From: Nemertoderma westbladi
Lineage: Eukaryota > Animalia > Xenacoelomorpha
Direction of reading: 5' to 3'
Length of the DNA stretch: 59,989 bases
NCBI GenBank assembly: GCA_032718475.1
Contig: JAUCBJ010000755.1
Span: 1 to 59,989 of the forward strand
Numbering within the stretch: position 1 is the first letter of the stretch; each line of letters opens with the position of its first letter. This document shows positions 1-58,590 of the stretch, one piece after another. A program made the position numbers and the translations under genes. The notes under the pieces are model-generated. The model made no database searches, had not been told where the DNA came from, and saw nothing but the letters and a program-made list of their open reading frames with translations.

Positions 1-1386
1 CCCAGAACTTTAGGTGACCCATCTAAATCACATGTCATGTACCAGTACACATATGGAGATCCCATCATTGTAGAGGACGTGGTTGATGACTTTGAAAGTA
101 ACGGCTTCAATCCTGATGACCTTGTTGCCAGAGGGAAAGTTAAAGAAAGAGAACTTAAGTGGTGGGGTAGATTCTTTTGGATATTGTCATGGAAAGCTAA
201 GATACTGATAACTCTGTACAATAACTTAATCAAAAGGAATATATTGAAGATAAACAGGATCATAACATATGGAAAGACAGAATCAGAAATAGATAGAGAC
301 ACTTCAGAGTTCGCAAAACTAGCAGGACAAGAAGGTAAAGAATTGTTCCTAGTTTCAGTCCATTTGGACTTGTCCAGCTGGAATGAGTTAATGAGAGCTA
401 TATTGACCAGCGAGATAGGCAGACAATTTGACAAGTTATTTGGATATAAATCGTACGCTTCGAAGTTGTTTACTTTTTTCCAGACGGCAAAAAAACTATC
501 AGCAGCTCAGTTGGCAAACTTAGCCCCAGCAGATCTATTGGGGGATGGCGAGCCAAAGAGTCTGGGAAATTGGAAATTTCATGAAGGGGGTGGACAGGGG
601 ATTCTCCAATCCATATGGACATACATCACTGTTTTAACAATAGATGCTGCTAAAGACGTACTAGATGCTCCTCTCCTTCACAACGGACAGGGAGACAACC
701 AGAGGATAATGATAAAATTTATGGTTAGTAAAAACCCGTTTTTAGCTAATGATGACAAATTACAATGTATGAAGAAAGTCGATTCATTTGTCAAAGACCT
801 TAAACTAAGATTTGCAAGAATAGGGCAAAAATTAAAACCAGAAGAAACGTTCGTTTCAACTTCCGTTTCAGTTTATGGGAAAGCAACCTTATACAAAGGC
901 GCTAAACTTAATATGCTCATGAAGAAGGTTGGTTCTATAAGAGATTATGGTGATGTTATGGAATTCTCTGCCTCCGCACTTACTGGAGCCGTCATAGCCA
1001 ATGTGGACGCTGCCACTGCCCAAACGTCTCTTGGGGTCACCCCCAGGTTCTTTTACCATTACTACATGAGAAGGATAATGGATCTGATCTCAGACAAGCA
1101 TCCAATGTTTCCTAACGGAGGATTGGTGGATTCCGTCAATCGACTAAAAAAAGTGTCATTGCAGGGAGCTTCGAAATTCTATCACTTTGACCTAAAATCT
1201 AATTTGGAATCACTAACAGTGGATGAACTCCGATGTGCTCTGAAAACAGTTGTCCCCTTCATTGGATCTTTGTATGGTATTCCAAATCAATCCTATACTT
1301 CCTCAATTATCAGGAACTTTCCGGATGCTCTTGGAACCTCAATGTACTTCCTTTTAAGCTCCTCTCAGATACCTCAGTTCCATTAA
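1..1386 (+). pseudogene. L: Endogenous viral element: Mononegavirales-like L protein, RdRp domain (frame open from position 1, so 5'-incomplete)
   Basis: Pre-motif A KERELKWWGRFF, motif A DLSSWNELMR, motif B EGGGQGILQSIWT, motif C GQGDNQ, then LKPEETFVSTSVSVYGK and RNFPD; no introns. Confidence 0.95.
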
Positions 1387-4300
1387 TAAGCAAGACCATA
1401 ATCCATTTACGCGGATTGATACCAGCCATATTCAAACCCCACATGATGCCTGAAGTTCATTCAAGAATGCTCATTTTAGATCCTGAATGTATAAACTCTT
1501 GGAAAGTTAACTCGATAGAGGGCTTTGTTCAAAACGAGTCCATGAGTTATCTCAGAAGCAACAAAGATAAAGTAAAACCCTCCTTATTAATAGATGCACT
1601 AGAGTACAACCCAGACTCAACCATGCGAGATCTGGCTGATGAATTGGTCAGTTTTAAACCATGTTTTCCCCGTGCGTTGAAGTTAATAACGAATGTGGCA
1701 ATTCCAGACTTGATTTTGAAATTTATAAGAAGGATAGCCAGTTGCAAAACACTGGTAGATATAGCCAGAATGACTAGGGGAGATAATGTCTATGACAAGT
1801 TAAGAACCAGAGAATCTTATATAACAGGTATAATATTCGAATCCATAGAAAATATTCCAGATGAAGTAGAAGTAGAACATGAAGACGATCCTTCTGAATC
1901 CAGCTCTGAATTACTCCAAAGACTGAGAGCTTCTTCTTTTAGATTAGATGTTGAGGATCTATTGGGGGTAACCACTCCAGACCCACAAGAACAATTTGAT
2001 TTGTTTGAAGTTTCTGGTAATGGTTGTCCTAAATGTCCAAAAATTGAATCCCATGAGAAGTCTATGTACATATGGGGATCAGTAGCTGCAAAAGGAAAGA
2101 CTTTAAGAGATCTTGTCTCCACCAAAGGACCATATCCCCATTATTTGGGATATGTTGTACATAGCAAGACTGTCAAGGCCAAATTCGAAAAACATGAACA
2201 GTTGGAAATTATAGGAGATGTTGTGGCGGTTATGAAACTCATAGGCCCTGTGTACCCAGAAGACTCATCGGTTGGTAAATTGATTTTGGGCTTGGTCTCT
2301 CAACTAATAGAGGATGTTCCTGGATTAATGGAAGTCCTATCCAACAAGTTCGCAGGAAATCCTGTCCATCGAGTGGACGACCCTCATAATCGCAGGGGAG
2401 GTCAGAACAACCTTAACATCAACTTCACTTCCCATGTCACAACTAGCTCAAATCCAATGAGTCACTCAGCTCGAGGAGGGGAAGATTACAACATCAACTA
2501 CCCGGCTACATTCTTAATGATGACTGATGAAATTCTAGATGATTTGATAAAGAAAACAGATGATCCCGACAAGCCTTTCACTCATGACTTCCATTACCAT
2601 TATCACCCTAAGGAGAAGGCTTTGGTTCCTCTACCCACGGTTGTGACCCCAACTGACTGTGATCCCGACCAGGCTGCCAGGATAGTAAAGATTCTGGACA
2701 ACATCAAGCCTCTAACTCAGAGAAAAGTTAAAGCTACTGAATATCTCAGATCAGTGTTACCTCCGGTTCTATACAATGTAGAGATTGAATATAATGACTT
2801 AACACCCATGGACCAATGGCATTCAGTTAGTTTCACACTAGGAGTGCTAAATGGACTATGGTCAACTCAAGTACTTAGACACGGGACAGATAATTGTGCG
2901 GGAGAGGCAGGGGGAAAACTCACTATAGGAGCATCCTTCAAAATACAACCCTACTATTACTTGATCGGGTTATTAGGGACTATTGTTGTGGATCTGGAAG
3001 CATCATCTTCCAAATCCAGGTGGTCAAAGGCTTGGGAGGAATTTTCATTGGAATTAAAGGAGCACATACTTCGGAAAAGTAATTACTCTGAGTCTTCCTT
3101 TCTACTGATGTTTGAAAACCAAATAAGACGCATATCAGAAATGTTACCAAACTTTTCTCCTCCCAAGACTCCACTGATGGGGTCTAATGATGGGCACGAA
3201 ATGATACAACAGGCTCTAACAAGTATAGTATCTAGCGTTGGATCTTATTCTAAGCTTGGGAATCTGATCAATAAGCGAATCATAAGATTTAATCAAGTTC
3301 AGTTAGGAGGAGGCTTATTCTTTCTGAGATTTGGGTTCGTCTCTCTGTGCCATTGGGATCAATACAAAGACAACCAAAAATTCCTTACTTCTAGAATCTT
3401 GTCGGAAGGTTGCCCAGGATTCAACCAGAGCTCATCCACATGCATGTGGACAGAATCAGAAGTCTTAGAGCATACGTGCGCTCGAATCTTTTCAGATCCG
3501 GTGATATCTAAGGAACTGCCAATAAATGCTATAAGGGGATTCATAGGGACTGATTCTCTAATAGATTCTCTAATGTCAGATGTTACTGTGATTCCTCCGC
3601 AGTCCCAAAGTCAAGCTCATTATTCACCACCTCCATTCCCTGAACTAAATAACTTCTTGTCTACCTGCATAGATATTACGAATGAGAAAGATATAACCAC
3701 TAGAAGGAAAGACATAGGATCTAACAAAACCACAGATAACTTGGGAAGTATCAACAGATTCAAGTACGACATGGAAAACACGAGAGTTTGGGTGGATAAG
3801 TTAGTCTGTCCCACGAGCAGCTATATGAAATTTGACGACATACTGAATATGCCAGAGTTAGTTAAAGTTTGTAGATCATTTAATAGTGTAGTCGTTTCTT
3901 CCTACGGAGACGGCATGGGGGGAGTGTTCTTTTATGTAGCAGCTAGATTTCACTCCAAATTCCTCATGGGTCGCCTGTCAACTCTAGCATTGGCTCATGA
4001 TTTTCCTAGACAAATGGGTTGTGAAATTAACTTTACCGGACTTAAAATGTGTGCCGAGAGGCTCAATTGGAGAGAAATGAGAAAGTTATTGGAACTCAGT
4101 GAGAAAATGCTCCGACTTAATGGTGGAGATATAGTCAATCCCGGAGTGACAGCATCCCAGGAAGCATCGTTTGATTGTACGAGTGACTTGGAAATACTAA
4201 CTTTGGATGCTGACTTGAAAGATCTTCATTGGGGATCTTCAGGAGGATGGTTTCAGAGAGTCCTTGTGGAAGTATCAAGCATAAGAAAGTCGAAAAATTA

Positions 4301-5210
4301 CTTAGTAATAAATAAAGTTTACAAGGAAGAAGGAGAATTGTTTTTTAGATTAGTAACTAGTGTCAATGACTCATATTTCTCTAGCTCAGTCGTGTCGCAT
4401 TTAGTGAAGCCTATCTCTTCAAACGGAGGGAGCCAAGAGTATTACAATGTCACGTTGGTGCCTCTCTTGGTGTTAGACTCCTTTGTATCATGGCTAGAGG
4501 AAAACTTCAACTTTCTCCATTTACCTAGCACTGATAATATTAATAGCCTAGTCCAGCACAACATAAGAGTATCTATTCTTAGTAAGCAAAGATACATCCC
4601 ATTTCGTGAAAGAGCTAAAAGAGTCAGAGATTGGTACTCCCTGTATCTAACTCCAATTTTAGGTCATCCTGAAACCATAGCAGCACAAGGGCTGTTTTCA
4701 TTTGCAGAAGGATGGCAATTGGAAGAACTGTCGATATTGGCTGCTAAACAGGAGCCTAAAAGTATCATAAGGAAAACAGTCACCCGTCCAACTGGTCGTT
4801 CTATTATGACAGATGCCAAGGCTTTCAGATATGCATTCTTATTGCTTAAAGGGATGCTCCCCAATGCAAAAGAGGATGTCTTGGAATTTTTGATAACCAA
4901 AGTAGTGGTTGAAGGGGGATTAATCTTCTTCAAAGGAAAACAACTTGACAAGAAACCCCAAAAATATGTCCTACCTATCTTCTCGAAACCTTGTTGGAAT
5001 GAGCACTTGTCATCATCGATAATAGGTCCTGTGTCTTCCACCTTCTTCTTTCGTATTGACCCTGACAGGATTCTAGATAAGACTATGAAGCTCTCGAGAA
5101 GAGAAATAGGGGAATGTTCACCTCCTGATGGATCTACATGGGTTGTACATCCGGTGGATATTAGGGTTATCAAAGTGCCAATCCACCAAATTAGTAATGG
5201 AATATTATAA
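1350..5210 (+). pseudogene. L: L protein C-terminal part (PRNTase capping domain, connector, methyltransferase, CTD), after a frameshift near 1350-1380
   Basis: ORF 1233..5210: GPYPHYLG, GNPVHR (HR motif), DYNINY, MTase motif YGDGMGG with a K-D-K-E-like tetrad (YMKF, DAD, NKV, SQEYY). Confidence 0.92.
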
Positions 5211-5217
5211 AGAAAAA
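5205..5217 (+). terminator. Putative viral gene-end/polyadenylation signal overlapping the L stop codon
   Basis: TTATAAAGAAAAA, similar to TAAGAAAAA-type gene-end signals of mononegaviruses. Confidence 0.55.
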
Positions 5218-5323
5218 TCACTAACTATATCTGTCTTGCGAGATATCAAATCAACCTCCGACCAGTTAGAACAACTTAAAGGCTTGTTTATAAGATACCT
5301 ACTGGAGAATTACAATGAGACAT

Positions 5324-5700
5324 TGTAAAGTAAAATGGTGGATAATAGGGTGTTAGTCTACTCGCAGGTAGCCCCGCCATAATCTGATTTAATCTCCTTG
5401 CCTTCACCTTCCTGCAAATGAAACACCTAGAAATAATTTGTCTACATAGAATTTGTAGATTGTTAATGTGATACGATTCACGTAATTTGATAAGCATTTG
5501 ATTGTAACTCGCATGAAATAATGCTAGGTGTGTACTGAGTATTAAATCACGAACTATGATATGTGACTTATCAATAATGATAGGGTAGGCTGAGTCATAT
5601 GAAATTGGAGCTTTACAAATGCGGCTACCAACCCGTAATAAACCATCTCCTGAAATAAATGGGCACAATTTAGAAATATTACTAGAATGTTCAATGTTGA
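5324..5700 (-). mobile_element. BEL/Pao LTR retrotransposon pol fragment (integrase HHCC zinc-binding region)
   Basis: SSNISKLCPFISGDGLLRVGSR...PIII...H...H...CFICRK...IMAGLPASRL...PPFYFT; homology stops just before the expected GxD of the catalytic core; clearly diverged from the element at 20497-28641. Confidence 0.9.
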
Positions 5701-6679
5701 TCTTTTAAAAATGGATCGCCATGCTCACACACAAGATTTTTTTAACTTTTTTTACTCCTTTAACATACTTGTTAACATACGCGCTAGACCTTTACCGGAC
5801 TCGTTTTATGGGATCAAAGATCACCCTTATTACGTCAATTTAACCCAATATTACATGGTAAAACCGGAAGATCCTACCCATAGTCTGAGGTTTCTACCAC
5901 TAATAAATCCTCTCGATCTTGTCGAACTCGAACAACTGCAGAAACATCTGGATCAGTTAGTTAAAGTAAACTCATTTCGAAAACCATATAATGTTTCCAG
6001 AATAGAGAAAGAAATAATACCTCCGTATAATCTTGATGGATTCATCAAAACTCGATTAGTACACTGGAATCTTGACGTGTTATTCGAGGAGGAAAGAATA
6101 CAACGATATGGAGATGTGGAAACATATACTACCCAATACTTAAAGTATAGAGATCTACCTAATGCTAGCGAATGCGCTACCTTGTGGCATCCAGTGGGAA
6201 TGACTCTCGAAAACGCCACTAAAGAGTGGAATGAGACTCTTAACGTTATCGAGATGTATGGAGTTGTCACTTACGATAACGAAGGTAGCGTTCCTGTTGG
6301 AGAACTGGGAACTACGCGAATGATACACATACGAGGACTCGCTGGTTCTACCCACGTATTTACTCGAGCGTGTTCCGATGTGATTGATTATTCTTTTGAG
6401 ACTCTTACGGAGACACAAAAGAAACTCCGACATGGACAATTCGAACTCGCGCAGCGTTACGTCACCGACACCGAGCGCAAACCAGCCATGGGTATCGATG
6501 GATCGATGTTACCCCAGCCCGTGCTCGAGATGCTGTTTAACGAAAGAATCCTTAAAATCGGCTCAGCTGTTTATGGAGACCTCCAAAACGACTTTCGGAA
6601 CATGGAAAACATTCCAATAGGGAAACGTCCAATAGAAGACACTAAAATAACCAAAGAAAGTGACGACAGTGTTCTGTGA
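5687..6679 (+). CDS. Intronless ORF with a C-terminal, truncated DEDDy 3'-5' exonuclease-like domain (WRN/EXD2/RNase D-like)
   Basis: ExoI-like VVTYDNEG; LPQPVLEMLFNERILKIGSAVYGDL resembles the ExoII region; no ExoIII YxxxD before the stop. Confidence 0.6.
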   Translation: MFNVDLLKMDRHAHTQDFFNFFYSFNILVNIRARPLPDSFYGIKDHPYYVNLTQYYMVKPEDPTHSLRFLPLINPLDLVELEQLQKHLDQLVKVNSFRKPYNVSRIEKEIIPPYNLDGFIKTRLVHWNLDVLFEEERIQRYGDVETYTTQYLKYRDLPNASECATLWHPVGMTLENATKEWNETLNVIEMYGVVTYDNEGSVPVGELGTTRMIHIRGLAGSTHVFTRACSDVIDYSFETLTETQKKLRHGQFELAQRYVTDTERKPAMGIDGSMLPQPVLEMLFNERILKIGSAVYGDLQNDFRNMENIPIGKRPIEDTKITKESDDSVL

Positions 6680-6930
6680 AACTGAACGGACACAGACGGT
6701 GAATAAGTTTGCTTCAGTCGACTATAGTCAGGATGGATTAATGATTTATCACATCCAAGCAGGAGATAACTTCCAATAAAATGTAAATGTATAATTAATA
6801 CTGTGTACCTGTTGATAAATTTCACTTATATTCGATATAGTACATGATTAAAATGTATAAATGAGTATCCATAAAATCCTTTCTTCACATATCAAACGCT
6901 AATAAGTTGACATCATGTAACAAAATGACA

Positions 6931-7071
6931 TACATCATTGCTTGCAAAGGTCACTTTTCAGCGTTAAAGACCATTGTTTATTGATGTAAACCTCCCTCGC
7001 TGCGCTCGCTCGGTACATAAATAAACTCGGGTCATAACGCTGCAAAGTGCTACTTTGCACACAATGATGTA
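6931..7071. repeat. Imperfect palindromic MITE-like element
   Basis: Arms of about 42 bp (tacatcattgcttgcaaagg...aagacc / ggtcataacgctgcaaag...caatgatgta) around a central cctcgctgcgctcgctcgg. Confidence 0.65.
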
Positions 7072-8199
7072 AATAGTTATTAGATTTAATTAATACGGGA
7101 TAAAATTCACATTATATTTAATAGGCCTATACATAATTGTTACATTAGGGTAAGAGGCAAAACGTCTACATTTATGTCTCCAATATTTGAATTACTGGTG
7201 GGGGATGGAATTCGTAGGGGTCGTAAGATGTATTTAGGCTAGTCTATAAACTAATCCCCCACCAATGACAAAATGTTGATAATGAAGTGTATAGTACGTG
7301 AAATAGTGATAAGTTATCCTTCCTAGAGGTACCGAACGGTCATACATTATTTCTTAAAAAAGCATAAACTTTAATCGCTTGTCAGTGAGAATTTATTAAA
7401 ACCTGTTGTTATTTACAGTATTGTTATTTACAATTTAACATATTTTGTTTGCACAAGTTTCGATCTTCAAACGGCTGAGACATCCAAATAGTGGCGCAAA
7501 TTGACCATTAGTGAAAAGGTATTGTTTAATGTTTTGGGTAGAAAACACCGCCACTAATGTTTGAAATTTAAATAAATTCATTTTTTAAATCATCTAAAAA
7601 ACACATATTTTGTATTTCCGGTCACTTTGCGCCATTAACTCGAGAAATCACATCCGCGTTTTTGACTGTCGGTCATAAGTGATAATAATTATCTATAACG
7701 AAAGCCTTAAAATCGTCTAAAAACTACTTATTGTACAACTCATAATCAGAAATTACACAAAAGTGAATTGTATGCGTTATTGTAGATATATATATTTTTT
7801 AAAATATCTGCAGTCGGACTGGCCCCAGGGGTGGTGGAAACACGTCCGCCTCGTGGGTGTGCTTCCGGGAGGAGCCCAGAAGGACGAAAGCGGTGATGCA
7901 GATAGATCGACAGTAGACGACCCAAGAAGGAGGACTCGCGATTCTACCGATGTCACACCATGTGCATTGCCAGTACCGCGAACGGAAATACCGGAAGTCA
8001 TAGCGCGTGGCGACAGTAGAACCGAAGACTTCCTTACCATCCCGTAAACCAGATCGCGGGAACTGGACATGGTAAGTTTGGCTGGAAGCCATGAGAACAA
8101 TATTAGGAGTATAGGAGGACACATAACTCGATTACCCCAGATTACTTGAAATATCGGAGAAGGTTTTCGCATTATGCGCGAGTTAACTGCCCCGATTGA

Positions 8200-8237
8200 C
8201 CCCCCCCCCCCCCCCCCCCTGGGTTTAATAGGGTTAA
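8200..8237. mobile_element. Possible piggyBac-like element terminus
   Basis: C20 tract then tgggtttaataGGG-TTAA; no partner end recognised. Confidence 0.3.
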
Positions 8238-8330
8238 GTCATTTTTAAGGCAGGAGCTACAATACCAGAAAATAACTCATATCAAAGATGAAGATTTGAA
8301 GTAAAAAGTTACCTATACAAAGTCAACTTA

Positions 8331-8777
8331 ATGTTAGTCAACTTAATGGCGGAAAATCTTATAATTATGATTGGTGATGATTGTGGCAGTACATCTAAAA
8401 ATGTCATTGTTTTTCCATGTGAAGATGTAATTATGGAAACACTCCATTGTGAACATAATATTGAACCATTGATTAGGCCTATAGATGAGTCATTTGGAAC
8501 ACAACACCAGCCAAGATATAAATTTCAAACAAACCAATCTGTGGCTGTCATCTGGGATGAAACCAATAATACTAAACAATGGTAAATTTGTTTTTATATT
8601 GATGAAAACGAAAATGGTTCTATTCGTGTTGATCATTTAACTCGATCAGCTGCTTCTCATGACTGTTGGCAATGGCCAAAGGTTGATGACATCCAAGATG
8701 TTATTGATCTTCAAGTATTACCAGTTGTTATAGATGGTTTCTGGAACTTAAAAAGCATAAAATTAGAAATTTCATAG
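8331..8777 (+). pseudogene. Degraded coding remnant, probably from a DNA transposon protein
   Basis: Protein-like frame continues past the TAA at 8583-8585: VAVIWDE..W*..VDHLTR..WQWPKVDDIQDV..QVLPVVIDGFW. Confidence 0.35.
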
Positions 8778-9254
8778 AAATTGAAAATGTTTTTAGAGAA
8801 ATCTGTTGAAATATTTCAATGCTGTTGTTTTTTTCTAAAAGAAGTTTGTAAGCCCTGATTTCAATAAAGAAGGTCCTCTAAAGCTTTCAAAAGTTTTTTT
8901 CCATTTTTCAACAACTTACTATCTATAAGCTCTGCAATACAAAGACTTCCAGGGACCAGGATATATGATCAACCAAATAAGACTCCTTCACATCTGTATT
9001 ATCAAGACTAACTAACAATTGGCCAAATTAATCGATTATACCTGCAGGGTGAAGCTGGGTTTTGAAAAAACATATTACTAAGGTTGCGTGCAATGCTTTA
9101 TTTGTGTAATATTTGTTAAATGAATTATTAATTATTAATATTAACTTTATAATCTACTATATATATCTACTTTAACTAAATAAATTATTAAAAACACTCC
9201 CACGTATTATAATCTGCGGTACTGCTACTGCTACTGCAGTACTGCGGTATAAAC

Positions 9255-10097
9255 GTGTACCTGTCTGCATGTCTGCATGTGTACTGCTACATGGCCAAAG
9301 AAAGAAACTATTATCGTTGCCTAGGTGTAACGCCGGAACTAGTGAATGAGATGTCGGATGATGAGGCTCCTGTGACAATTGGCGCACTGCGCCAACTCAC
9401 GAAAACTAGGCTACGCACGATTACGAAAGATAAACTCATTGAGATAATCTCGGGAGATGATTCTTTGCCGGCAACTCGATCCGATATAGTGGATGTACTT
9501 AAGCTTAACAATGATGTAATTATTGAAGCAGTAAAAAGGGAAATCATGTCGGATGTTGAAAAAATCGTAGATAATGCCAAGGATGACATGAGACAGGAAC
9601 TCGATGATAAACTCTCTGATATGCAAACCAAGGTACCAGTACATATTATGGCCTTTGGAGCTAAGTTCGAGGTTGGCGAGGATACGCTCAAGGTGGCAAA
9701 ATCAATTGTCTCGACTACTGGCTACACAGGAGATTGTGTTATTAGCGCACAACGTGTAGGTGCAATGGCAAATCCACCAATCCGCATCCAGATTAAGAAA
9801 AGTGAAGATGCTACCGCTATACTAAAGGTGCGAACGAAGCTCCGCGGATCGGCATTCAAGTCAGTGTACTTGAATCCGGAAAAGAGCAAGGATCGACTTC
9901 TGATGGAAGCGAACTTCAGAAAGCTCATTGGTAGGGACAATCAGGAGCAGTTGTCTATGTCTCCAAACAGTAGACTGGTGGATAAAAGGGTCGTCGGAAC
10001 CATGCGTAACCAGGGGCAACAATCAGGACCAACCGGCGATGGACGAGGAGGTGGACGCAGCTGCGGGGCCCGCGGTGGACCTAATGTTCAGAATTAG
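9255..10097 (+). CDS. Non-LTR retrotransposon ORF1
   Basis: Coiled-coil segment, then RVG..PPIRI..LRGSAFKSVYLNPE (LINE ORF1 RRM/CTD-like); lies directly upstream of an APE-RT ORF. Confidence 0.75.
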   Translation: MYLSACLHVYCYMAKERNYYRCLGVTPELVNEMSDDEAPVTIGALRQLTKTRLRTITKDKLIEIISGDDSLPATRSDIVDVLKLNNDVIIEAVKREIMSDVEKIVDNAKDDMRQELDDKLSDMQTKVPVHIMAFGAKFEVGEDTLKVAKSIVSTTGYTGDCVISAQRVGAMANPPIRIQIKKSEDATAILKVRTKLRGSAFKSVYLNPEKSKDRLLMEANFRKLIGRDNQEQLSMSPNSRLVDKRVVGTMRNQGQQSGPTGDGRGGGRSCGARGGPNVQN

Positions 10098-12200
10098 GAC
10101 TGCGGCCTCCAGCCGAACATTAGTGAAACTCTACGACTCGGCAGCTGGAACTGCAATGGATGGACGACAGCAAACTCAAACTTACGTGAAACAATCATAT
10201 CCGGTATAAATCCGGACATATTAGTTATGTGTGAAACTTTCCACAACAGGTCGGATGATCTCGCCTTCAGGGAGTTCGTCTGGTTTGGAAATGCACGACA
10301 AACTGTGAACAAGCGTGCAAAACGGGGATCGGGTGGAGTCGGTTTCTTCGTAAATAGATCTTTGCTCAAAAACTATAAAGTTTCGGTTGTTGATACTTCT
10401 CCCGAGGGAATAATATGTGCAATATTTAGGTCTCTAGATACGGATCACTCTATGTTGCTTTGTGGGTGTTACCTGCCACCTGAGTCGTCTGTTTATGGAC
10501 GTGATTCCATCGACTTCTACGCCCATTTACTATCCCAGATTTATCTGTACGGTAACTCGGTGGAGCAAGTTATAGTTCTAGGAGATCTAAACGGAAGAAC
10601 CGGGAATCTAGCTGACACTGTGTTTGATTTAGACCCTGACATTCCTACCCGCTCAAACGTGGATAGTGTGACAAATTCACATGGTAAAGCTCTCGCTGAC
10701 AGCTGATTTTGCACTGACAGCTGCATGTTTATTGCTAACGGTAGAATCCCAGCCGGGCAGTACGGTAGTAATGATGATTTCACTTTAGTAAATGTAAGAG
10801 GGAAATCTGTAGTTGATTATGCACTTGTATCTACAGAAAACTACTCAGATTGCGAGTCATTTTCAGTTTTAGCCAGTACTGATTTAGCGATAAAACATAA
10901 TTGTGTTGAACTCTGTACTGATAGTTGCAGATTACCCATCATTCACTAATACTGCTAGAAATACGCACTCATACCTTAGATAATTATAATGAACGTGGTA
11001 CAAATCTAGGAACTTGGATGGGGGATAATACTGAATCTAAGTTCGACACATATATTCCAAGAAAATACACTTTTTCTAGGCATGCTATACCTACTGATAC
11101 TTTAAATAGTCAAATCTCTTGGGGTGCGATTAATAAATTGTGCGATAACATTATAGTAGCTAGGGGGGAACAAGATACAATTGATCACTTATACACCACT
11201 ATTAGCAAAACTATTTCTAGGGAATTGGAAGTTTATGTTAAACAACAAAACTCTTCTAGCCCCCGAGTTAGAAAGCAGTTTAAATATAAAAAACCTTACT
11301 GGGATGCCGAGTTAACGGCACTCTGGAAGATTTTTCATCAAAAAGAACGTGATTTTCGAAAATGTACTCATGTTAACACCAATTATAAATCTGTACACTC
11401 GGAATTTTTATTAGCGCGTAAAGAATTTGATAAAACATTACGCCGTAAACGTAGAAAGTACCAAACTGATCAGGCCAATAATATTGAAAAATTAAGTTCA
11501 TCCGGTCAAAAAGATTTCTGGGATTGTTTAAATAAACTAGGACCTCGGAAAAATGTAGACATACCATTGGAAGTACATAGGAGTACTGGTGAAATTATTA
11601 ATAATATTCCTGATGTAATTAATGCTTGGAAGGACGATTTTTCTACGTTACTTAACCGAGCCGACTCGGGTAAAGCTGACACAGACTTTATTGAGCGAGC
11701 TTTGGGGCAGAAAACTGAACTCGAGTGGTTTATGGAAAGTTGTTCGTTTGAGACTGACAGTCCGCTTAATGTTCCGTTCACAGCGGATGAAGTACAATCA
11801 GCCGTTAATAAGCTAAAATACGGTAAAGCAGTTGGTTTTGACGGTTTGCCTAATGAATTCCTTAAATTACCTGGACTGTGTAACTTACTTGTTGAACTCT
11901 TCAATTATATTTTTGATACTGGCAAAATTCCGTCGGTTTGGCAGCAGGCTCTTATTAGACCATTTTATAAGGGTAACAGCACAAGTGTTAACGTACCATT
12001 AAATTACAGAGGAATTAGTCTTCTACCGTGCATAAGTAAGTTATTCACTTCTATATTGGATGTTCGTTTATCCAAATTTTGTGAAGTTGATGAATTATTG
12101 TCTAACGAGCAGAATGGTTTTAGAAAAAATCGTAGTTGCTTAGAACACATCTATACAATACATTCCATTACTTCTATTAGGAGAACAAATGGGTCTTCTA
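10098..12200 (+). pseudogene. LINE ORF2 (APE endonuclease plus start of RT), disrupted and 3'-truncated; clade uncertain (RTEX/L2-like)
   Basis: SWNCNG, MCET, GSGGVG, CYLPP, GDLNGR, VVDY; KAVGFDGLP, NYRGISLL, EQNGFRKNRS; stop at 10704-10706, frameshift near 10930. Confidence 0.9.
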
Positions 12201-12201
12201 C

Positions 12202-12490
12202 TTTAGTGTCTGGTTGGAGATGTGTGCATTGTACTTGACACAATGAACCCGGCGTAGCATTCTTGTGAATGTGCCATCCAGGGATTTGGTGTCCTCAGCA
12301 GTTAGAGCCCAGCATGGACTCCCATAGAGGAGTACTGCAACTACTGCTGCTCTAAATAATCGTACCTTAAATTTCTGATTAATTCTCGGTGACTTCCAAA
12401 TCCTGGAAAGCCTATTCAACGCTGCCCATGCCTTTCCCTTACGTATTCGAAGGTCCTCACCTGACTTCCGGATCCATGATCCCAGGTAAC
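12202..12490 (-). mobile_element. RTE-like LINE internal fragment
   Basis: Near-identical reverse complement of about 59315-59600 (LNRLSRIWKSP...LLYGSPCW). Confidence 0.9.
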
Positions 12491-12494
12491 ATAA

Positions 12495-14978
12495 GTCTAT
12501 AGATAGATAGATTTATTTATACATTATGTAAAAACAATAACAAATACACCAAACAATGTACCGGTATAAAGGTATTGTCCAACATAACATATAGGATTAC
12601 CCCTAAAGCTTTGCAGCTTATTTCCAAGGGGGTCCTTTATGTTACTTGGTTACAAATACAATATTACACTACGCTAACCTAAAACCAATATAAAACGTAA
12701 TTACACTATGTACATGTACAACTTTACCGAGAGCGTGACAATGCCCGACTCAACGATAAAGATGTAATGTACAGAACAATTTATTATAAAACGTAATTAC
12801 AGTATAAATAGTAAATAATTAATAAACTAATATCTTACTGTAGGACTATTGTACCTATTTTTACATTGCACACGGAGATGAGATTTAACTGCAGATTTAA
12901 AAGAATGTCGATTATTTAGGTTTTTAATTTCATTAGGCAGAGCGTTCCAATTTTTTATGCCGTTAAAAAAGAAAGTATCAGATTCAAAGGATTTACAATT
13001 CGGGAGGTAGAAGTTTGAAGCACTAGCTCTGGTACTGTAAGAGTGTGTATCGCGTACTCTGTTGAATTTTTGTTTTAGGTAATTGGGACATTTACCATTA
13101 TACACTTTATGCACATGGTTAAGGCGTAGCTGCTTAACTCAACTATCTAAGTTAAGTAGTCCAGATTCAGAAAAGTCATCTGGAGTTAGGTGGTGCCTAG
13201 GTTTGTAGTCTTTAATAAATCGTACTACTTTATTCTGAGCTACTTGTAATTTACATTTAAGCTGTTTGGTTAAGCCTTCATACCAAGAAGAGCACGCATA
13301 GTCCATGTGACACTGTATTAAAGAAGAGCAAAGTAACTTGCGGGAGTCGGTGTTCAAACTATTTTTATTTCTGTATAGAAACCTAAGCCTACTGTTAACT
13401 TTCGAGAAAATATTTTTCACTGTACTTTCTCCTGATAAGCAGTTATCCAATGTGGCGCCTAAATATTTAACTTCCTTTTTATTTTCAATCTTATGTCCAT
13501 TACTAGTGACTTCAAACTTAGTTACCTTCTTTAACTTTCTTTTGGAACCAAACAAAATACTTTCAGTTTTACCGTAGTGAATGGATAGCTTATTATCAAC
13601 CAACCACTCATTACAGGATTCTAGAACTGCACTTAACTTTTGGGAAATATGGATAGGATCTTTATGAGAGAAAATAAGAGCACTGTCGTCGGCATATAAA
13701 ATGAGTTTAAAATCGGGATCTATACTACTTATCATATCATTTACATAGCATACAAAAAGCAGAGGACCTAATATACTACCTTGCGGTACACCACAGGTAA
13801 TCTCTTGTACAGTAGACAGCGATTTGCTAATGACTACAGTTTGACCTCTGTCTGACAGGTAGGACTTGAACCAGTCTATAGAACCTACACCCATCAGGCC
13901 TAACTTACCAAGCAGAATTTCGTGATCTACAGTATCGAAAGCCTTTTGTAGGTCCAACATTACCATACCAGTATATAAACCCTTTGCGTTATTACATCTA
14001 ATTGTATCAGTTAAGTTAATAAGGCAGGTGTCTGTAGAATATGATTTACGAAAACCGGACTGAAGTTCATAGATCAGATTTAGCCTACTAAGATGTGCCT
14101 CCAGCTGTAGAAAAACAGAACGTTCTAGAATTTTAGATACAATACTTAAGATACTAACAGGTCTGTAATTACAGGGTTCTACTTTACTATTCTTTTTATA
14201 CAGAGGAACAACCTTAGCTAATTTCAGTTCGTCTGGTACTACATTATCTACGATAGAGTAATTAATAATAAAAGTAATAGGCACTTTAAGTACTTCAGCA
14301 CCATCCTTAAGAAAACGGGCAGGTATTAGATCTAGACCGGTACTTTTTGAGGCTGATAGGCTAAGTAGATTTTTAAAAACAAATCCTCAGAAACGGGTTT
14401 TAAAAATAACTTTTCTGAATTTTGTAACTTTTCTAAATAAAAATTATTTAGAGTTTCGGACCCTATACTATATTTATTACTTGATAACGGTAATTTCTTA
14501 ACTAAATTAGAGGCAACGTTAGTAAAATAATTATTAAATAAATTACTAACTAGAGTATGATCATGAATCAGCTCACCGTTATCTTGCAGAACAATATTCG
14601 ATTTAGATTTAAGGTTTTTATAACCTAAAGATTTTAGGGTAGACCATAGACTTTTAGGATTATCTTTATTCTCACTTATTTTGTTGTACAAATATTCAGA
14701 TTTAGCTTTTTTTATTTCCCGTTGGACAAGGTTTCTATATTTGCAGTAATTATTATAATCAGCTAAAACACGGTATTTCCTAAATTTATACAAATAGTTA
14801 TCTCTTTCTCTGATATTACTAAGAATACCCGAGGTCATCCAGGGCTCAGTGCGTTGTTTAAGACTAATTTCTTTAATTGGTGCTACAGTATTAAGTGCCT
14901 TTAAAAATATATCTTTAAAAACAGTGTACGCAAGGTTAATGTCAGCGGCCTTAAAACAGGGTTCCCAGTCAGAATTAA
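12495..14978 (-). mobile_element. 5'-truncated CR1/L2-group LINE with 3' UTR and (ATCT)n tail
   Basis: RT ORF 13139..14284 ([38 protein letters not shown]), with adjacent pieces 14332..14994 and 12827..13114; ends AATAAA-(ATCT)n on the minus strand. Confidence 0.92.
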
Positions 14979-15581
14979 CAGTCAGGGAAAACATCCCCGT
15001 GGGGATATGTGAAATTTAGGCTTAATTTCTCAACCTATCCTAGTCAGGATAGATGACATATCCCCACCAGGATAGATGGCACATTTTCCATTTTTTCGGT
15101 TTGCGCAAAAATTGGTTGGATGGCTATGTATTTCTTCGGTATTACAATGATCAATAGGTTACAAAAATTGTAAAATTTCACGCCCTTGTCATTGGTAAGA
15201 TTTATAAGAAGATTATAGGGGTTTTAAATTCACATTGATTTCTATCCTGCTGGGGATATTATCGACATATCCCCAGCAGGATATGTTTTATTTATATCCT
15301 GGTGGGGATATTTTGGATATATCCACAGTAGGATATGTTATAGAATAATATGTGTGTTTCCTATTCAGCATATCCTATTCAGGATATGCTAGGCAGTTGC
15401 TGGTGTGGGTGTTTCTACTGTATAGGATTTTGAGGGTGAAAGACATTTGATTTATCTGTCAGTAATTGTTAGGCAAATTATTACGAAACTGCAGTCTGAA
15501 TACTGGTAGGGCTACCGGTACTTATTAGACCCTATTACGATAGTTTGTTCTGTACCAGAATAATTCTGATTATTAATTATT

Positions 15582-16031
15582 TTGATAATGGCTTCCGGTG
15601 CGGTAAATATAGGGCCTAAAGAACCACGGAAGGGCCGTGTTGAAACTTGCTTCTGTTCCAATTTATCCGATCTATGCTCAACTGAAACTAGTGAAAATTT
15701 TTACACGAGGAATAAAATTTTCGAACTTCTTCTTTGGGTCCAAAATCCCAAAAGCTATGTTGGACCATTACATACCAGGGAGTCTATGGTAATGAATTAT
15801 GTAGATTCGTCCAAGTTTGGTGTCATGGTTAGAGCTGCCACTTCGCCTGCAGCATCTTACCCCACTCAACAGACAATCATACAGGCATCTTCTGTAGACT
15901 TCCCTGAAGTGTCGCCGTCTAAAGATATATGTATTGCGATAGATAACTTTCAATTTGTAGGCAAAACCTACCGCCTTTTCAATAAGGGTGTACCAATAAG
16001 CAAGGTTTGCTCAGTGATCAGCATACCTTAA
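15582..16031 (+). pseudogene. Possible transposase remnant inside the TIR element
   Basis: 149-aa ORF with IAIDNFQFVGKT; position inside the TIRs. Confidence 0.35.
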
Positions 16032-16454
16032 TTGTCAGGATTTATTAATTCAAAGGCACCCAATTCAGTCTGTCAGTTCATTGACCTAACTGGATTGGAT
16101 GTAGCCGAATGAGTGGAGGCCTTTATTGAAATTGAATTGATTGTAACATTGTTTATGTTACATTTAACATAACGTAACTATATTTAAATTATATAATATT
16201 AAGTCTGTACTGGTGTCAAAATATATAATGCAACTATCAGACTATCCCCAAAGGCATAATAATTAAAGAACCCAAAAATAAAGTAAACTGAAACTAAAGG
16301 TGTAGGCCTACTAAGGATTGAACTAAGTTGTCCCTTCTTCTTCCAACGGAAGTTGTGGAGGGCACTCCCCTTCGCCTTCAGTAATGACTGGGGGTGATAA
16401 ACCCGTTTCTTTCTAGCGCTAGCAGTGGCTGATGATTCATCTGGCTGTAGTTCG

Positions 16455-17110
16455 TGTTGTCCACTTACTCCATCTATCTCTGACATCATCTGTCCATCCA
16501 CTCCATCTACCCCCAGCACCTCCTGTCCATCCACTCCATCTACCTCCGATATCGCCTCTCCACTCACTCCATCTATCTCCGACATCCCCTGTCCACCCAC
16601 TCCATCTACCTCCAACATTCCTACACCTCCTGTCCATCCACTCCATCTACCTCCGATATCGCCTCTCCACTAACTCCATCTATCTCCGACATCCCCTGTC
16701 CACCCAATTTCATCTACCTCCAACATATCCTCTCCATCCACTCCATCTACTTCCGATATCGCCTCTCTACCCACTCCATCTATCTCCGACATCCCCTCTC
16801 CACCCACTCCATCTACTTCCAACACCTCCTGTCCATCCACTCCATCTACCTCCGATATCGCCACTCCACCCACTCCATCTATCTCCAACATCCCCTGTCC
16901 ACCCACTCCATCTACCTCCAACACCTCCTGTCTGCCTGTCCACCCACTCCATCTATCTCCGATATCGACTCTCCACCAACCAGCCAACTCCATCTCTCTC
17001 CGACATCACCTGTCCACCCACTCCATCTACCTCCAACACCTCCTGTCCACCCACTCCATCTACCTCCGATATCGCCTCTCCACCCACTCCAACATCCCCT
17101 GTCCATCTAT
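16455..17110. repeat. 36 bp C-rich minisatellite with 108 bp higher-order trimer
   Basis: Recurring cactccatcta(c/t)ctcc core; three alternating unit types. Confidence 0.85.
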
Positions 17111-17168
17111 ATCCATCTATCCAGTTAAGTTCAATCAGTCAATTTGTCTGAAGTTTAGTATGTTTACT

Positions 17169-17420
17169 GTATATACAGTTATAGTTCATATCCGTACCTC
17201 TGGTATTTTCGTATTGCAAAAATAAGACTATACGTATGAAATACCCTATGTTATTTTGAGATATTGTTTATTGTTTTGGTTAGAAAAGCCCACCACTGTA
17301 ACCTGCTCCTTTCCGTTAATTAAGTAATGGAGATTAGTTTATTGTTTTGGTTAGAAAACACCACCACTGTAACCTGCTTCTTTTGCCAGAGGTACGCATA
17401 TGAACGATAACCGTATATAC
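17169..17420. mobile_element. MITE with about 35 bp TIRs, Tc1/mariner-like TA context
   Basis: gtatatacagttatagttcatatccgtacctctgg / ccagaggtacgcatatgaacgataaccgtatatac (3 mismatches); internal ~40 bp direct repeat. Confidence 0.7.
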
Positions 17421-18104
17421 TGTACAACTCTACTGTAGACAGATATACCGGTATCAGTGTACTGTACAGACTGAGTTGTTGAGGGACTACCAGACTACAG
17501 GTCTACCCTTCAGTCAGCCAGGTACCGAAGTAGACTACCTATTATACCGGTTGTTATATTACTTTCGCACAGAAGGCAATACAGCATTAAGGCTACCAAC
17601 TAACATCTACGTGTACGGTACGTGTAAGCTTAGAGGCAATCCTTCTGGGGATATGCCACAAAACTTACATAAAACAAGCTACTGGCTGACTGGCAGACTG
17701 GTACATTATTCTAAAACATAGGCCTATCCTAAGACTGAAGATGTCCAAAATATCCCCACCAGGATATAAATAAACATGAATGAACTTTATCGTGAAACAT
17801 ATCCCGCTGGGGATATGTTGATAATATCCCCAGCAGGATAGAAATCAATGTGAATTTAAAACCCCTATAATCTTCTTATAAATCTTGCCAATGACAAGGG
17901 CGTGAAATTTTACAATTTTTGTAGCCTATTGATCATTGTAATACCGAAGAAATACATAGCCATCCAACCAATTTTTGCGCAAACCGGAAAAATGGAAAAT
18001 GTGCCATCTATCCTGGTGGGGATATGTCATCTATCCTCACTAGGATAGGTTGAGAAATTAAGCCTAAATTTGACATATCCCCACCGGGATGTTTTCCCTG
18101 ACTG

Positions 18105-20496: not shown

Positions 20497-23400
20497 TTAG
20501 GATGCTTGCGGAGGACTCCTGGGAGACTTGTAGTCTCCAGTCCTGTGCCGCGCTTCCTCTAGTAGCACTAACCTTTGCACTGGCCTATCTACTTTGCGGT
20601 TATCAATAGTCCTTACTGTTACAGTCCTGATCACGCCGTCTGGTGAAGGGTGTGCTTTCTGGATTACTCCCGTCATCCAGAACCTACGTTTAAGGTTTGC
20701 TTCTGCTAAGAGCACGTGGTCACCCTGTTGGAGATTACGAGTTTGCTGGTACCACTTAGTCCTGGCAGAGATAGAGGGCAAATAATGATCTTGCCATATC
20801 TCCCAGAACTTACACGCCAACAGTTGCGTCACCTTCCAGGCCTTGCGACAATAAAGGTCTCGGTCGTCAGGTATGGACGTTGGCAATAGTGACGTAGGTG
20901 ACTGCATGAGTAGATGGTTTGGAGTCAGTGGGAACTGGTTATCTCCGTCGTCGGGAACGAGTGCGATGGGTCTAGTATTTAAAATGGACTCTATCTCGAC
21001 AAACAAGGTGGTCAGTTCATCGTCTGTTAATACTCTGTTAACTGGCAAGGTCTTAGTCATTGTTGTTTTGACTGATCGGATCAGTCTCTCCCAAACCCCA
21101 CCCCTCCATGGACTGGCTGGAACGTTGAAGTTCCATTCAATCCGCCGGGGTTGGAGTTCTTTAGAGATCTGATCACGGTCTAGTCCATCCAAAGCTCGTG
21201 TGATCTCATTTCGTCCTCCTACAAAGTTCGTCCCACAGTCTGAGTGGAAAGTCTTTACGAGTCCGCGTCTAGCTATAAATCGTCGAAGGGCCAAGATAAA
21301 TGCGTTTGTCGTTAGGTCAGTAACACGCTCAATGTGTATGGCTCGACAGGCCATACACGTAAAGATCAAACCCCACCTTTTTACCATTACTCTACCTCGT
21401 TTGGTGTCGAAAGGACCGAAACAGTCGATTCCTGTCTCGGTGAATGGTGGTTGATATGCCTTTATTCTTGCCACGGGTAATTCGCTCATGATCTGGACAC
21501 CTATCCTGGAATGAACCTTCCGGCACACAATACACCCGCCCATTACTGAGGTTAGAGCCTTACTTGGTCTTATTAGCACAAACCTGTTTCGTAGTTGTGA
21601 GAGGCAGTGATGCCGCCCAGCGTGCTTGAGTTGGAGGTGTGTATCTAATATCATGGCTCGTTGTAACTCTAGCTGTTGTGGAATTATTATAGGGTACCTA
21701 AATGTAGCAGTTAAGTCTGTGGTCTGGAGTCGTGATTTGTGACACAGTAAACCGTGGTGTATGATAGGACTCCAGCTGAGAATGGGTGAGGACTTGATTG
21801 GACGACCCTGGGAGATGGCATTGAACTCACTTGAGAAATATCGCTGTTGGTAGTGGAGAAGAATATTTGTCTCACAGGCGTCCGTCTCTATGGTGGTTAA
21901 TTTCCTTGGGAAGTTACGTTTGCCGCCTAGGTATTGAGTGAAACGGCGTAACCAGGCCGTCTTTCTGCAGGCATCCCTCCAGGAAGCTGTTGTATTTACC
22001 AACTTGTCGTACAGTTGTCGAGTGGCATCATTGGGTGGTTGAGTAGCAATGTTTGGTTTGGAAGGTGAATTAATCAGACCCAAAGGCCTGTTCTGAACAA
22101 GGTTACCTTCTAAAATCTCGCATGTGGCTGAGACCCGCCCGGTATGTCCGTCTGGGTCAACTGGTACTTCTTCCTCCTCGGGTAGTTTACCCCTTTCAAC
22201 GCTATCTCGTGAATCCATCTGTAGTGGAGGTTTAAACTCGTCGATATAGATGGGTGTTACGTGTAGACTTTCGTTTGCAGTAGAAGTTGTTGTTATAGTG
22301 GTTGGTTGTGATGTCGGGATGTTACGTGACCGCAGGGTGATGCATGTTTCCACTTGGGTATTTAGAATACTCCGCTCCAATGGGTTTACCGCAGTGGCTG
22401 GGTCGTTGGTTTTATGGGAGGTTGTTATGAGTGTGCCCGAAGATCCACTTTGGGTGTGTCCTTTCTTTGGTTTGCCAGTCGTCTTTGACTTTGACTTCAC
22501 TTGGGTCACATGTTTAACTTCGGCGTCCTTAGGTAGACTATTTGATTTGGCGTCAAAGAGCGGTGGCCACTGGTCTCTCGGCTTAGTTAGGAAGGCAGGA
22601 CCATATAACCAAAATTTTCTTACCTCTGGGTCGCAGAATTCTGATGGCATCATCCCTCTAGAGGCTATGTCTCCAGGGTTTTGGTCTCCAGGACAGTGTC
22701 GCCAGTCTTCCTTGAGGGAATGATCGAGGATTTCAGCCCTCCGGTTAGCTACAAATGTTTTAAAATTGACTGTCTCACTGTTGAGGTAGAGGAGCACAAG
22801 AGTTGCATCAGTCCAATAGGTCACGTCTAAATTACCATCGAGCTCGCGCTGAATGAGTTTGGAGATATTAATAGCCAGCATTGCTGCTTGAAGTTCTGCC
22901 CGAGGGATGGTCATATATTTCATGGGCATTGTCTTTGCCTTCGAAGTTATAAGTGATGCTTCATAGACGTCTGGTGCCACCTGTCTACGTAGATATGCCA
23001 CTACCCCTAATCCATTCGTACTTGCGTCACTGAAACAGTGCAGTTCGATGTTGAGTGGGTACACTGCTTGTCGAGGGAAATAGACCCGAGGAATGACGTA
23101 GTCGGTGAGGAGTGGGAGCTGGTTCTCCCATTCGTTCCACTGCTTTGCTTGTTCCATGGCTATAGGTTCATCCCAAGTTAGCCCTGCCTGCCAGATGTTG
23201 CGTAAGTAGATGCGGGCTTGTAGTATGACAGGACTAATAAAATTCAAAGGGTCAAACAAGCGGCTCATGGTGGACAAACATATCCGCTTTGTGAGAGGTC
23301 CCGAGTTGGTGTTGACTTTTACGCAGACCCGGAAATTGTCGGAGTTGGGGTCCCATACTAATCCCAGTACCTTTGTCGTTGGCATTGACTCGAACTGCAG

Positions 23401-28641: not shown

Positions 28642-28715
28642 TAAATGTATGTGGGTAGGTGATAGTGGTCTGTAGCTAACTGCTACACTTACCTTTTCCT
28701 ATTGTAGTATAATGT

Positions 28716-58399: not shown

Positions 58400-58590
58400 A
58401 GAGCCGGAGGCGACTAGGCTGGGCGGCGGCGCTACTCCTACCTGCTACCCGAAGGTAGGGGTGGGCGCTACTCCTATCTGCTACCCGAAGGTAGGGGTGG
58501 GCGCTACTCCTATCTGCTACCCGAAGGTAGGGGTGGACGCTACTCCTATCTGCTACCCGAAGGTAGGGGTGGGCGCTACTCATATCTGCT
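58400..58590. repeat. 36 bp minisatellite derived from the SINE tail
   Basis: (tgctacccgaaggtaggggtgggcgctactcctatc)n matches 42930-42965; resumes at 59935. Confidence 0.85.

Follow-up and report, generated by a model that had tools for sequence, protein, structure and literature searches.

A Mononegavirales-type L gene, probably of an undescribed rhabdovirus-side lineage, adjoining a Pao/BEL fragment in Nemertoderma westbladi

Introduction

A negative-strand RNA virus polymerase (L) gene in an animal genome is known from bats: eEBLL-1, a long open mononegavirus L gene, derives from a bornavirus (37% identity), bears poly(A) and the target-site duplication that LINE-1 typically leaves when copying mRNA, and has orthologs under purifying selection (PMC4865735, accessible sections). 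Another route into host DNA is known from mosquitoes, in which EVEs and vDNA consist of viral sequence joined to LTR retrotransposon fragments. Such virus-retrotransposon hybrids arise by copy choice (PMC6797480, accessible sections), and BEL-Pao elements are enriched around EVEs (PMC7642597, accessible sections); among these, EVEs derived from RdRp genes form the rarest class and come from known families (accessible sections of both).

In the present study we analysed a stretch of 59,989 nucleotides of Nemertoderma westbladi (GCA_032718475.1, contig JAUCBJ010000755.1, positions 1 to 59,989, forward strand), hereafter the window, whose first 5 kb carry an L gene. Unlike eEBLL-1, this L is without poly(A), adjoins a Pao fragment and is present in several copies; unlike the mosquito EVEs, it spans more than 5 kb of L, belongs to an unplaced lineage and exists as two constrained versions. 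The literature search, with most subscription papers outside its reach, returned no description of this L-Pao element, and the accessible sections of PMC11907880 and PMC11097642 held nothing specific to it.

Results

Extent and domains of the L gene

On the plus strand, positions 1-5210 contain roughly three quarters of an L gene of the Mononegavirales type (Table 1). Two plus-strand frames are free of stops, 1..1386 (open at base 1) and 1227..5210, against 40-118 stops in each of the other five frames over 1407-5207. On an L profile of 1986 positions, built from 143 L proteins, the two pieces are collinear (457-887 and 897-1884) and contribute 451 and 1267 homologous codons, together 1,718 without a stop, which agrees with the over 1700 codons with RdRp, PRNTase and MTase motifs counted in a first-pass annotation. 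Pfam recognises Mononeg_RNA_pol in piece 1 (E 9.1e-39; PF00946, 133 bits against a cut-off of 27) and Mononeg_mRNAcap in piece 2 (E 3.6e-20; PF14318, 72.8 bits). Judged by its sequence, the stretch is a Mononegavirales-type L with polymerase, capping and methylase regions; the same annotation had called it a divergent L of this type in an animal genome, and the Pfam RdRp and cap domains, the profile match and the DNA runs of two samples bear this out. CpG observed/expected is 0.45 in L, compared with 0.65-1.29 in six neighbouring stretches.

The description of the gene as near-intact holds for its long stop-free course, but the N-terminal quarter of L, about 456 profile positions, is missing at the left edge, being either outside the window or lost. 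Likewise, the single frameshift reported is indeed seen near 1.35 kb, but it is specific to the window; every contig listed in the three of three covering runs is unlike the window there. Moreover, a second frame break is likely near 5.18 kb, with another frame open to 5328. The A-rich bases 5211-5217 were weighed as a viral gene-end signal, an idea dropped because they sit within the likely coding tail.

Table 1. Features at the left end of the window
Feature	Position	Strand	Remarks and evidence
L piece 1, RdRp core	1..1353	+	frame open at left edge and continuing past homology to 1386; Pfam, structure search, L profile
RdRp landmarks in L piece 1	premotif KERE; motif A 361-384; motif B 583-621; motif C GQGDNQ 685-702	+	
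Frameshift region	1350..1406	+	present in window, absent from listed contigs of runs X1, X2 and X3
L piece 2: RdRp end, PRNTase, connector, methyltransferase, C-terminal domain	1407..5210	+	Pfam, L profile
PRNTase motif B region, YLGYVV in window	2142..2159	+	conserved Thr missing; motif definition from PMC6636387
PRNTase catalytic HR motif (motif D), intact	2367..2372	+	L profile
Methyltransferase SAM-binding GDGMGG	3906..3923	+	K-D-K-E tetrad also present
Second open frame, likely true C-terminal tail of L	5110..5328	+	stops where Pao homology starts; no profile match of its own
Pao/BEL pol fragment (integrase zinc-finger region), stop-free	5324..5704	-	Pfam; adjoins L 3' end, antisense to L

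Conserved and replaced residues

GQGDNQ, LKPEET, GGGQG and YLGYVV had all been quoted correctly. The motif A Asp and the motif C GDN of the RdRp are the same residues as in 143 of 143 L proteins, while motif B reads GGGQG, with its Glu (143/143) and Lys (138/143) replaced. In the capping domain, the motif A Arg/Gly is retained alongside the catalytic HR. The PRNTase motifs as defined in PMC6636387 include GSxT (motif B), W (motif C) and F/Y-Q (motif E), with C or E naturally lost in some groups; here all three are altered, the replaced Thr, Trp and Gln being conserved in 133, 134 and 141 of the 143 L proteins, respectively. At the GxxT motif the window is one base off from all contigs in the three covering runs. 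The methyltransferase carries both G-x-G-x-G and K-D-K-E.

Relatives and phylogenetic placement

The closest of 1.84 billion representatives is 29% identical to L, and on this evidence L is from a virus without a close known relative, in keeping with the earlier suggestion of a possibly undescribed lineage; high identity to a described virus was not found. Scans of viral and metagenome contigs for close relatives found none, as did a word-index protein search for full-length relatives, a method weak for this purpose. Alignment scans of viral contigs returned 80 and 60 loci with a best identity of 31%, and none of the new loci with enough columns for tree building (58 of 80 and 25 of 32) joined the query L.

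The best solved-structure and database matches are Rhabdoviridae L proteins, the top ones including Sanxia water strider virus 5 and Primula virus 1; in the structure search VSV L (5a22) scored 79 bits and rabies L (6ueb) 77 bits, against at most 39 for L chains of 1711-1756 aa, which we take to be Borna-sized. With these rhabdovirus proteins the window L shares the order RdRp-PRNTase-connector-MTase-CTD, GDNQ, HR, and GDGxGG with K-D-K-E. It differs from them in a core only 24-33% identical, in the replaced motif B Glu/Lys and PRNTase Thr, Trp and Gln, and in branching either outside the sampled group or at its base.

A first FastTree of 149 rows gave L no supported sister. A careful tree paired L with P0004 (99/96), an unnamed public L of 2469 aa from a 13,359-base Logan contig, and kept the pair outside the rhabdo-like (96/93), xinmo and mymona groups sampled; this sister position was the best of 12 placements tested (AU 0.99). 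Placement inside any of seven sampled rhabdovirus subgroups or on the stem of the group was rejected (AU < 0.03; fixed backbone, LG+F+G4, 5000 resamples). With more outgroups both L and P0004 fell on the rhabdovirus side (SH-aLRT 97 in a quick tree; 89 in FastTree), L in an open fork; borna-, nyami-, lispi-, arto- and chuviruses had no named representative in these trees. Within Mononegavirales, the two would form a deep branch on the side of the rhabdoviruses. Uncommon residues link them in RdRp motif A and in motifs A and E of the PRNTase (found in 2, 3 and 1 of 143 L proteins), but they are only 27% identical in the core and 22% in the capping region, and P0004 retains the motif B Glu/Lys, the GxxT Thr and the motif C Trp. 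The P0004 join was flagged for long-branch attraction.

An affinity to the nyami/xinmo/lispi/borna-like branch, proposed initially, was not supported by these comparisons. GQGDNQ is not diagnostic, occurring in 94 of 148 matches, most of them on the rhabdovirus side of the tree, and VSV and rabies L score best. Grouping with Xinmoviridae was rejected (AU p 0.014 and 0.012) on four xinmovirus-clade L proteins, three of them named, which we assume to belong to that family; five unnamed viral contigs (L099, L112, L102-L104), whose motifs resemble those of arto- and lispiviruses, fall with the xinmoviruses and away from the query L. Since the L of Bornaviridae and Nyamiviridae has no MTase domain (PMC6636387, section 12), the full methyltransferase argues against a borna- or nyamivirus identity. 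Over 381 conserved columns, mean identity of L to rhabdo-like groups is 0.30-0.34, and that of xinmoviruses to most of these groups 0.35-0.37. Taken together, L likely records an undescribed virus lineage, distant kin of rhabdoviruses.

Copy number and two versions of L

L is borne by three runs, presumed to be DNA, from two samples of two studies (X2 and X3 being one sample, X1 perhaps the source sample). None of the listed carriers is an RNA run, which speaks neither for nor against expression. Depth over L is even, at 3.1-4.2 times that of the flank (8401-9200) in all three, a genomic depth in host DNA of independent samples, as in an endogenous element. A third sample, X5, is uncovered throughout 1-5200; because its unique flank (8401-8800 and 9201-12000) is uncovered as well, this blank says little on presence/absence polymorphism.

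Each of the two samples contains two versions of L, A and B, about 11.5% apart (in X2, 470 of 4,068 bases differ, and each piece has 0-4 gap letters). Because there are almost no indels between them, we infer that their divergence arose under coding constraint; neutral change on one lineage would be expected to produce 7-12 stops, and none is seen (P <= 1e-3), the frame of version B being deduced from gap counts. Version A shows three different frame-breaking indels across the window and runs, one of them in an X3 contig of depth 345, and five of the six single-base differences listed within it alter a residue; the two B-only differences listed are both silent. The sample-to-sample breaks look like decay after insertion, though some window-only differences may be assembly errors. 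A and B share identical patches and merge at 5217. That they are homeologous haplotypes was rejected, as the listed contigs include no second flank version of like depth. The presence of both versions in both samples, and the identical patches common to both, speak against two independent captures, unless exchange came later.

The Pao fragment and its junction

The antisense Pao fragment is open over 127 codons (381 bases), has 0.70-1.18 of the depth of L and, like L, is uncovered in X5. Depth is unbroken through 5201-5600, across the L-Pao boundary, although none of the listed contigs (the longest pieces) spans the junction; the left junction lies beyond the window. There is no poly(A) at this boundary, and a search of 1-20500 for LTR-like repeat pairs found none. 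The open Pao frame would occur by chance with P 0.07-0.29 at 5.8% divergence, where it is weak evidence of recency, and with P 0.0005-0.03 had 17% neutral divergence accrued. A 341-codon frame at 5654-6679 was rejected as a further viral gene on account of its summed depth of ~1e5 and CpG observed/expected of 1.29; it had no Pfam match, homolog or atlas match at 0.9, and its predicted fold had a pLDDT of 30.

Discussion

The best explanation, to which we give a probability of roughly 60%, is that a Pao element captured genome-sense RNA fairly recently, and that this RNA came from two strains of an undescribed lineage. An undescribed virus of the deep rhabdovirus-side branch would have infected the host germ line, where the reverse transcriptase of a Pao element would have copied viral RNA and switched template to Pao RNA in the integrase region. 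Because L is antisense to Pao, ends there and is without poly(A), the template would be genome-sense RNA near its 5' end rather than L mRNA, a geometry that predicts further viral genes upstream. Two virus strains are the likely source of versions A and B, which would have diverged under selection while still viral; thereafter the copies would have multiplied, exchanged patches by template switching or gene conversion, and started to decay. Transcription from the Pao side would yield RNA antisense to viral mRNA, a candidate and plausible template for small-RNA defence.

Between recent integration and preservation by selection, a choice that the first-pass annotation left open, the evidence leans to recent integration. 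Were L instead one old integration kept by the host, A and B would be paralogs diverged by 11.5% under purifying selection, a domesticated RNA polymerase with bat eEBLL-1 as precedent (PMC4865735, accessible sections); the broken A alleles would be assembly errors or redundant duplicates, and the loss of capping residues would signal a changed function. The constrained divergence and the occurrence of both versions in both samples of two studies fit this reading, as do the silent B-only differences, the absence of the main break from all listed contigs, and the intact GDN and HR amid several other replaced near-invariant residues; the shared patches and the merge at 5217 suit a single genome. 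However, frame-breaking indels segregate among the A copies, even at high depth, and the neighbouring Pao fragment would hardly still be open at 17% neutral divergence. In addition, eEBLL-1 orthologs are > 98% identical after 11.8 My (PMC4865735, accessible sections), so that 11.5% would require long retention, and P0004, an L on a 13.4-kb contig, shows some of the same unusual motifs, which makes a share of the oddities older than the integration. We therefore regard it as unlikely that this invertebrate keeps two anciently diverged open-frame L paralogs of a new Mononegavirales family as host genes whose polymerase centre is still intact and whose capping site has been remodelled.

It is more doubtful still that L is cargo of a still-replicating Pao-derived element, A and B being subfamilies of a mobile L-Pao chimera under the element's own selection. 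The matching multi-copy depth of L and the Pao fragment, and the capture of chuvirus glycoproteins by Pao elements (PMC7642597, accessible sections), would suit such a chimera, but L runs antisense to the Pao frame, no more than 381 bases of Pao are left, with no LTR-like pair in 1-20500, copies number only 3-4 times the flank, and an RdRp would seem of no obvious use to a retroelement. An origin without any host insertion, through chimeric assembly, episomal viral cDNA, or co-sequenced symbiont or parasite DNA, strikes us as very improbable: the junction lies in no listed contig, the runs are only presumed to be DNA and X5 is blank over L, yet in three libraries depth is even and similar in magnitude to that of the unique flank, it passes unbroken over the boundary, the Pao fragment follows L both in depth and in absence, and X5 is without the unique flank as well.

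Under the favoured reading of a Pao-mediated capture, a negative-strand virus lineage about as distant from rhabdoviruses as families are from one another would now be tied to a host genome, and the two versions within one genome would serve as an internal control for the timing of selection. The replaced near-invariant residues, which are needed for capping in VSV, may mean that the enzyme caps RNA by an unusual chemistry or that it has been repurposed. Should L prove to be kept by the host, it would be a second independent domestication of L, outside bats and outside bornaviruses.

The viral gene in the window and in sequencing runs

At base 1 the window is already within a reading frame (1..1386), and this frame shares an overlap with another (1227..5210); neither contains a stop, against 40-118 stops in each of the other five frames over 1407-5207. 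Pfam assigned the first frame to Mononeg_RNA_pol (E 9.1e-39) and the second to Mononeg_mRNAcap (E 3.6e-20). On an L (polymerase) profile of 1986 positions, built from 143 full-length matches, the two pieces fell at positions 457-887 and 897-1884; since these are consecutive, they form a single collinear L gene with a break near 1.35 kb. Pfam, profile and frame scan thus agree with the first-pass annotation on a Mononegavirales-type L without in-frame stops, with one frameshift and open at position 1. Its term "near-intact" holds for the 1,718 homologous codons in two stop-free frames, but not for the N-terminal quarter or so, which is missing, either beyond the window edge or lost.

Three runs, presumed to be DNA and drawn from two samples of two studies (X1; X2 and X3, one further sample), contained 83-85% of the sampled words. 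Compared with 1-12000, they gave even cover of 1-5200; relative to 8401-9200, the depth there was 3.6-fold, 3.1-fold and 4.2-fold. X1, which may be the source sample, showed zero substitutions against the window in the four longest L and flank pieces. X5, a third sample, covered neither L nor the unique flank.

Downstream of the 5.18-kb break a further frame remains open as far as 5328, and from 5324 Pao pol homology (Pfam integrase zinc finger) runs on the strand opposite to L, with 127 codons free of stops. The depth of this Pao fragment is 0.70-1.18 of that of L, and because the depths match and both are blank in X5, the two travel together. No contig among those listed spans the junction, and no run of six A was found in 5201-5770. 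A very high-copy repeat from near 5770 cuts off what follows.

Relatives and catalytic motifs

Searched without a filter, 1.84 billion representatives yielded 696 matches at E 0.001 or better and none at E 1e-30, and the top identity among the best 150 of the 696 was 29%, in keeping with the earlier suggestion of a possibly undescribed lineage. Thirty matches were looked up, the named ones being rhabdoviruses, xinmoviruses and fungal mymona-like viruses, family labels that we partly presume. Among solved structures, VSV L (79 bits) and rabies L (77 bits) came on top, the rest reaching 41 or less.

A careful tree of 50 of the 150 matches, picked to span clades (381 columns), joined the window L to P0004, an unnamed public L protein (99/96), apart from a rhabdo-like group (96/93) and from xinmo plus mymona (98/88). 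When 12 placements were compared with the backbone fixed (simpler model, 5000 resamples), only two survived: sister to P0004 (0.99) and, at 0.056, the stem that unites rhabdo with P0004; grouping with xinmoviruses was rejected (p 0.014). With P0004 and P0010 (another such protein) removed, the query still stood outside the rhabdo-like, xinmo and mymona groups, and with 25 viral-contig rows added, further outgroups included, it fell on the rhabdovirus side at an open fork (97, quick tree). FastTree flagged long-branch attraction, but three rare motif residues are common to P0004 and the query, one of them found in P0004 alone among 143, and odd columns shared by the two (4/57 overall) are no more than in five other rows.

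P0004 (2469 aa) and P0010 (2216 aa) lie on 13-kb contigs, have long branches at the rhabdo-like base and likely represent further undescribed lineages. A 10.4-kb viral contig carries five + strand frames (192-10168), the last a 2117-aa L; this rhabdo-like virus, without a close tree neighbour, has the top combined score to the query, yet is not its sister.

The nyami/xinmo/lispi/borna-like affinity first proposed is not borne out. GQGDNQ occurs in 94/148 aligned matches and is therefore no pointer to the borna/nyami/xinmo side, the xinmovirus grouping fails, and the query has the MTase that borna- and nyamivirus L lack, according to PMC6636387; among the named viruses in the trees, none was from the borna-, nyami-, lispi-, arto- or chuvirus groups.

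By motif definitions from the same source (PMC6636387), L keeps the RdRp motif A Asp and GDNQ, the PRNTase HR and motif A Arg/Gly, and both GDGMGG and K-D-K-E of the MTase. Replaced are the RdRp motif B Glu (conserved in 143/143 L proteins; GGGQG for GGxEG, as originally read) and Lys (138/143), and the PRNTase motif B Thr (133/143), motif C Trp (134/143) and motif E Gln (141/143). The VSV equivalents of these PRNTase residues are described as essential or important for capping, and some groups as naturally without motif C or E (PMC6636387). Over motif B and over motif C, both samples have contigs without any difference from the window, so the changes in these two motifs are not window errors. 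YLGYVV at GxxT is partly window-specific, since one base of the motif in the window departs from all contigs in the three covering runs; at the Thr position no difference is listed.

Two versions of L

Two versions, A (window-like) and B, occur in each of the three runs. A pieces show 0-6 differences from the window, and B is 11.5-11.6% different (470/4,068 bases in X2), its pieces having 0-6 gap letters, mostly common to A or netting to zero. Neutral divergence would predict 7-12 stops on one lineage, against 0 in the window (P 1e-3 to 7e-6), and 16-47 indels (assumed ratios 1:30 to 1:10). The divergence of A from B therefore took place under coding constraint. The A copies carry few changes, three frame-breaking indels among them (table), and 5/6 of their listed single-base differences in L are residue-changing; the listed B-only differences are silent (2/2). 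Another 956 rows, by their depth mostly in repeats, lie outside this list. Differences confined to the window may stem from errors in its assembly, and contigs lose rare variants. Near 2152 and 3252, at distances of 62 and 120 letters from a contig's end, A and B merge into that one contig, whose depth is the sum of theirs; chance would not produce this at 11.5% divergence, so A and B have swapped patches.

Other features of the window

The remainder consists of LINE-type reverse transcriptases, a Pao/BEL element and tandem repeats. This content fits the genome of an animal, likely an invertebrate, although no host gene turned up.

Coordinates of frame-breaking indels in L and of repeats and mobile elements
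Feature	Position	Strand	Remarks
Frame-breaking indel	near 1.35 kb	+	window only
Frame-breaking indel	near 4.94 kb	+	one deep contig, X3
Frame-breaking indel	near 5.18 kb	+	window and X1 vs X2 and X3
Very high-copy repeat	5770-7100 (frame 5654..6679)	+	summed contig depth ~1e5 vs ~30 in unique flank
LINE-type element	9213-12238	+	endonuclease or reverse transcriptase frames
LINE-type element	13139-15015	-	endonuclease or reverse transcriptase frames
Inverted repeats, 310-base, 97% complementary	14979-18104		internal repeated motifs
Pao/BEL gag-pol, uninterrupted 2733-codon frame	20497-28698	-	Peptidase_A17, DUF1759, DUF5641
Long satellite arrays	33291-56093		periods 38, 19, 51, 37, 60 and 49
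LINE-type element	58567-59883	-	putative endonuclease or reverse transcriptase frames

The Pao/BEL element, likely young, is of another family than the fragment adjoining L (36% identity). The very high-copy repeat contains a 300-codon open frame; for this frame neither Pfam nor the homolog and atlas searches at 0.9 gave a match, its single-sequence fold failed, and it is an unexplained coding-like element. The first LINE, at full depth in X1 and thin or uncovered in X2/X3, is perhaps a polymorphic insertion. The inverted repeats flank 2.5 kb, within which lie a tandem array of 33-base units and a frame of 153 codons that Pfam does not match; the whole is likely a DNA transposon of the non-autonomous type. 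Long frames in the satellite arrays are repeat artefacts.

Origin of the element

Window and runs together show an L gene with an opposite-sense Pao fragment at its end, several copies, and two constrained versions. Since the chimera, read in the Pao sense, runs Pao and then viral minus strand, a reverse transcriptase would likely have copied genome-sense viral RNA, and, close to the 5' end of the virus, would have switched to Pao RNA. The same copy-choice route with a retrotransposon is reported for mosquito vDNA (PMC6797480), and BEL-Pao is described as enriched at EVEs (PMC7642597). Bat eEBLL-1 differs from this proposed Pao template jump: there LINE-1 copied an mRNA, and both poly(A) and a target-site duplication are present (PMC4865735).

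We favour a recent capture of two virus strains, at a probability of roughly 60%, because of the constraint between the versions, the apparent decay within A and the unbroken Pao frame. Maintenance of the L copies by the host would fit the presence of A and B in both samples and the patches common to them; however, the decay in A and the intact Pao frame speak against it, and we consider it unlikely.

Recent capture or not, L is best taken as a genuine endogenous viral element whose general kind is already known, and its source lineage has, by database sequence comparison (1.84 billion representatives, best 29%), no described member. It combines unusual catalytic motifs with an internal record of two versions.
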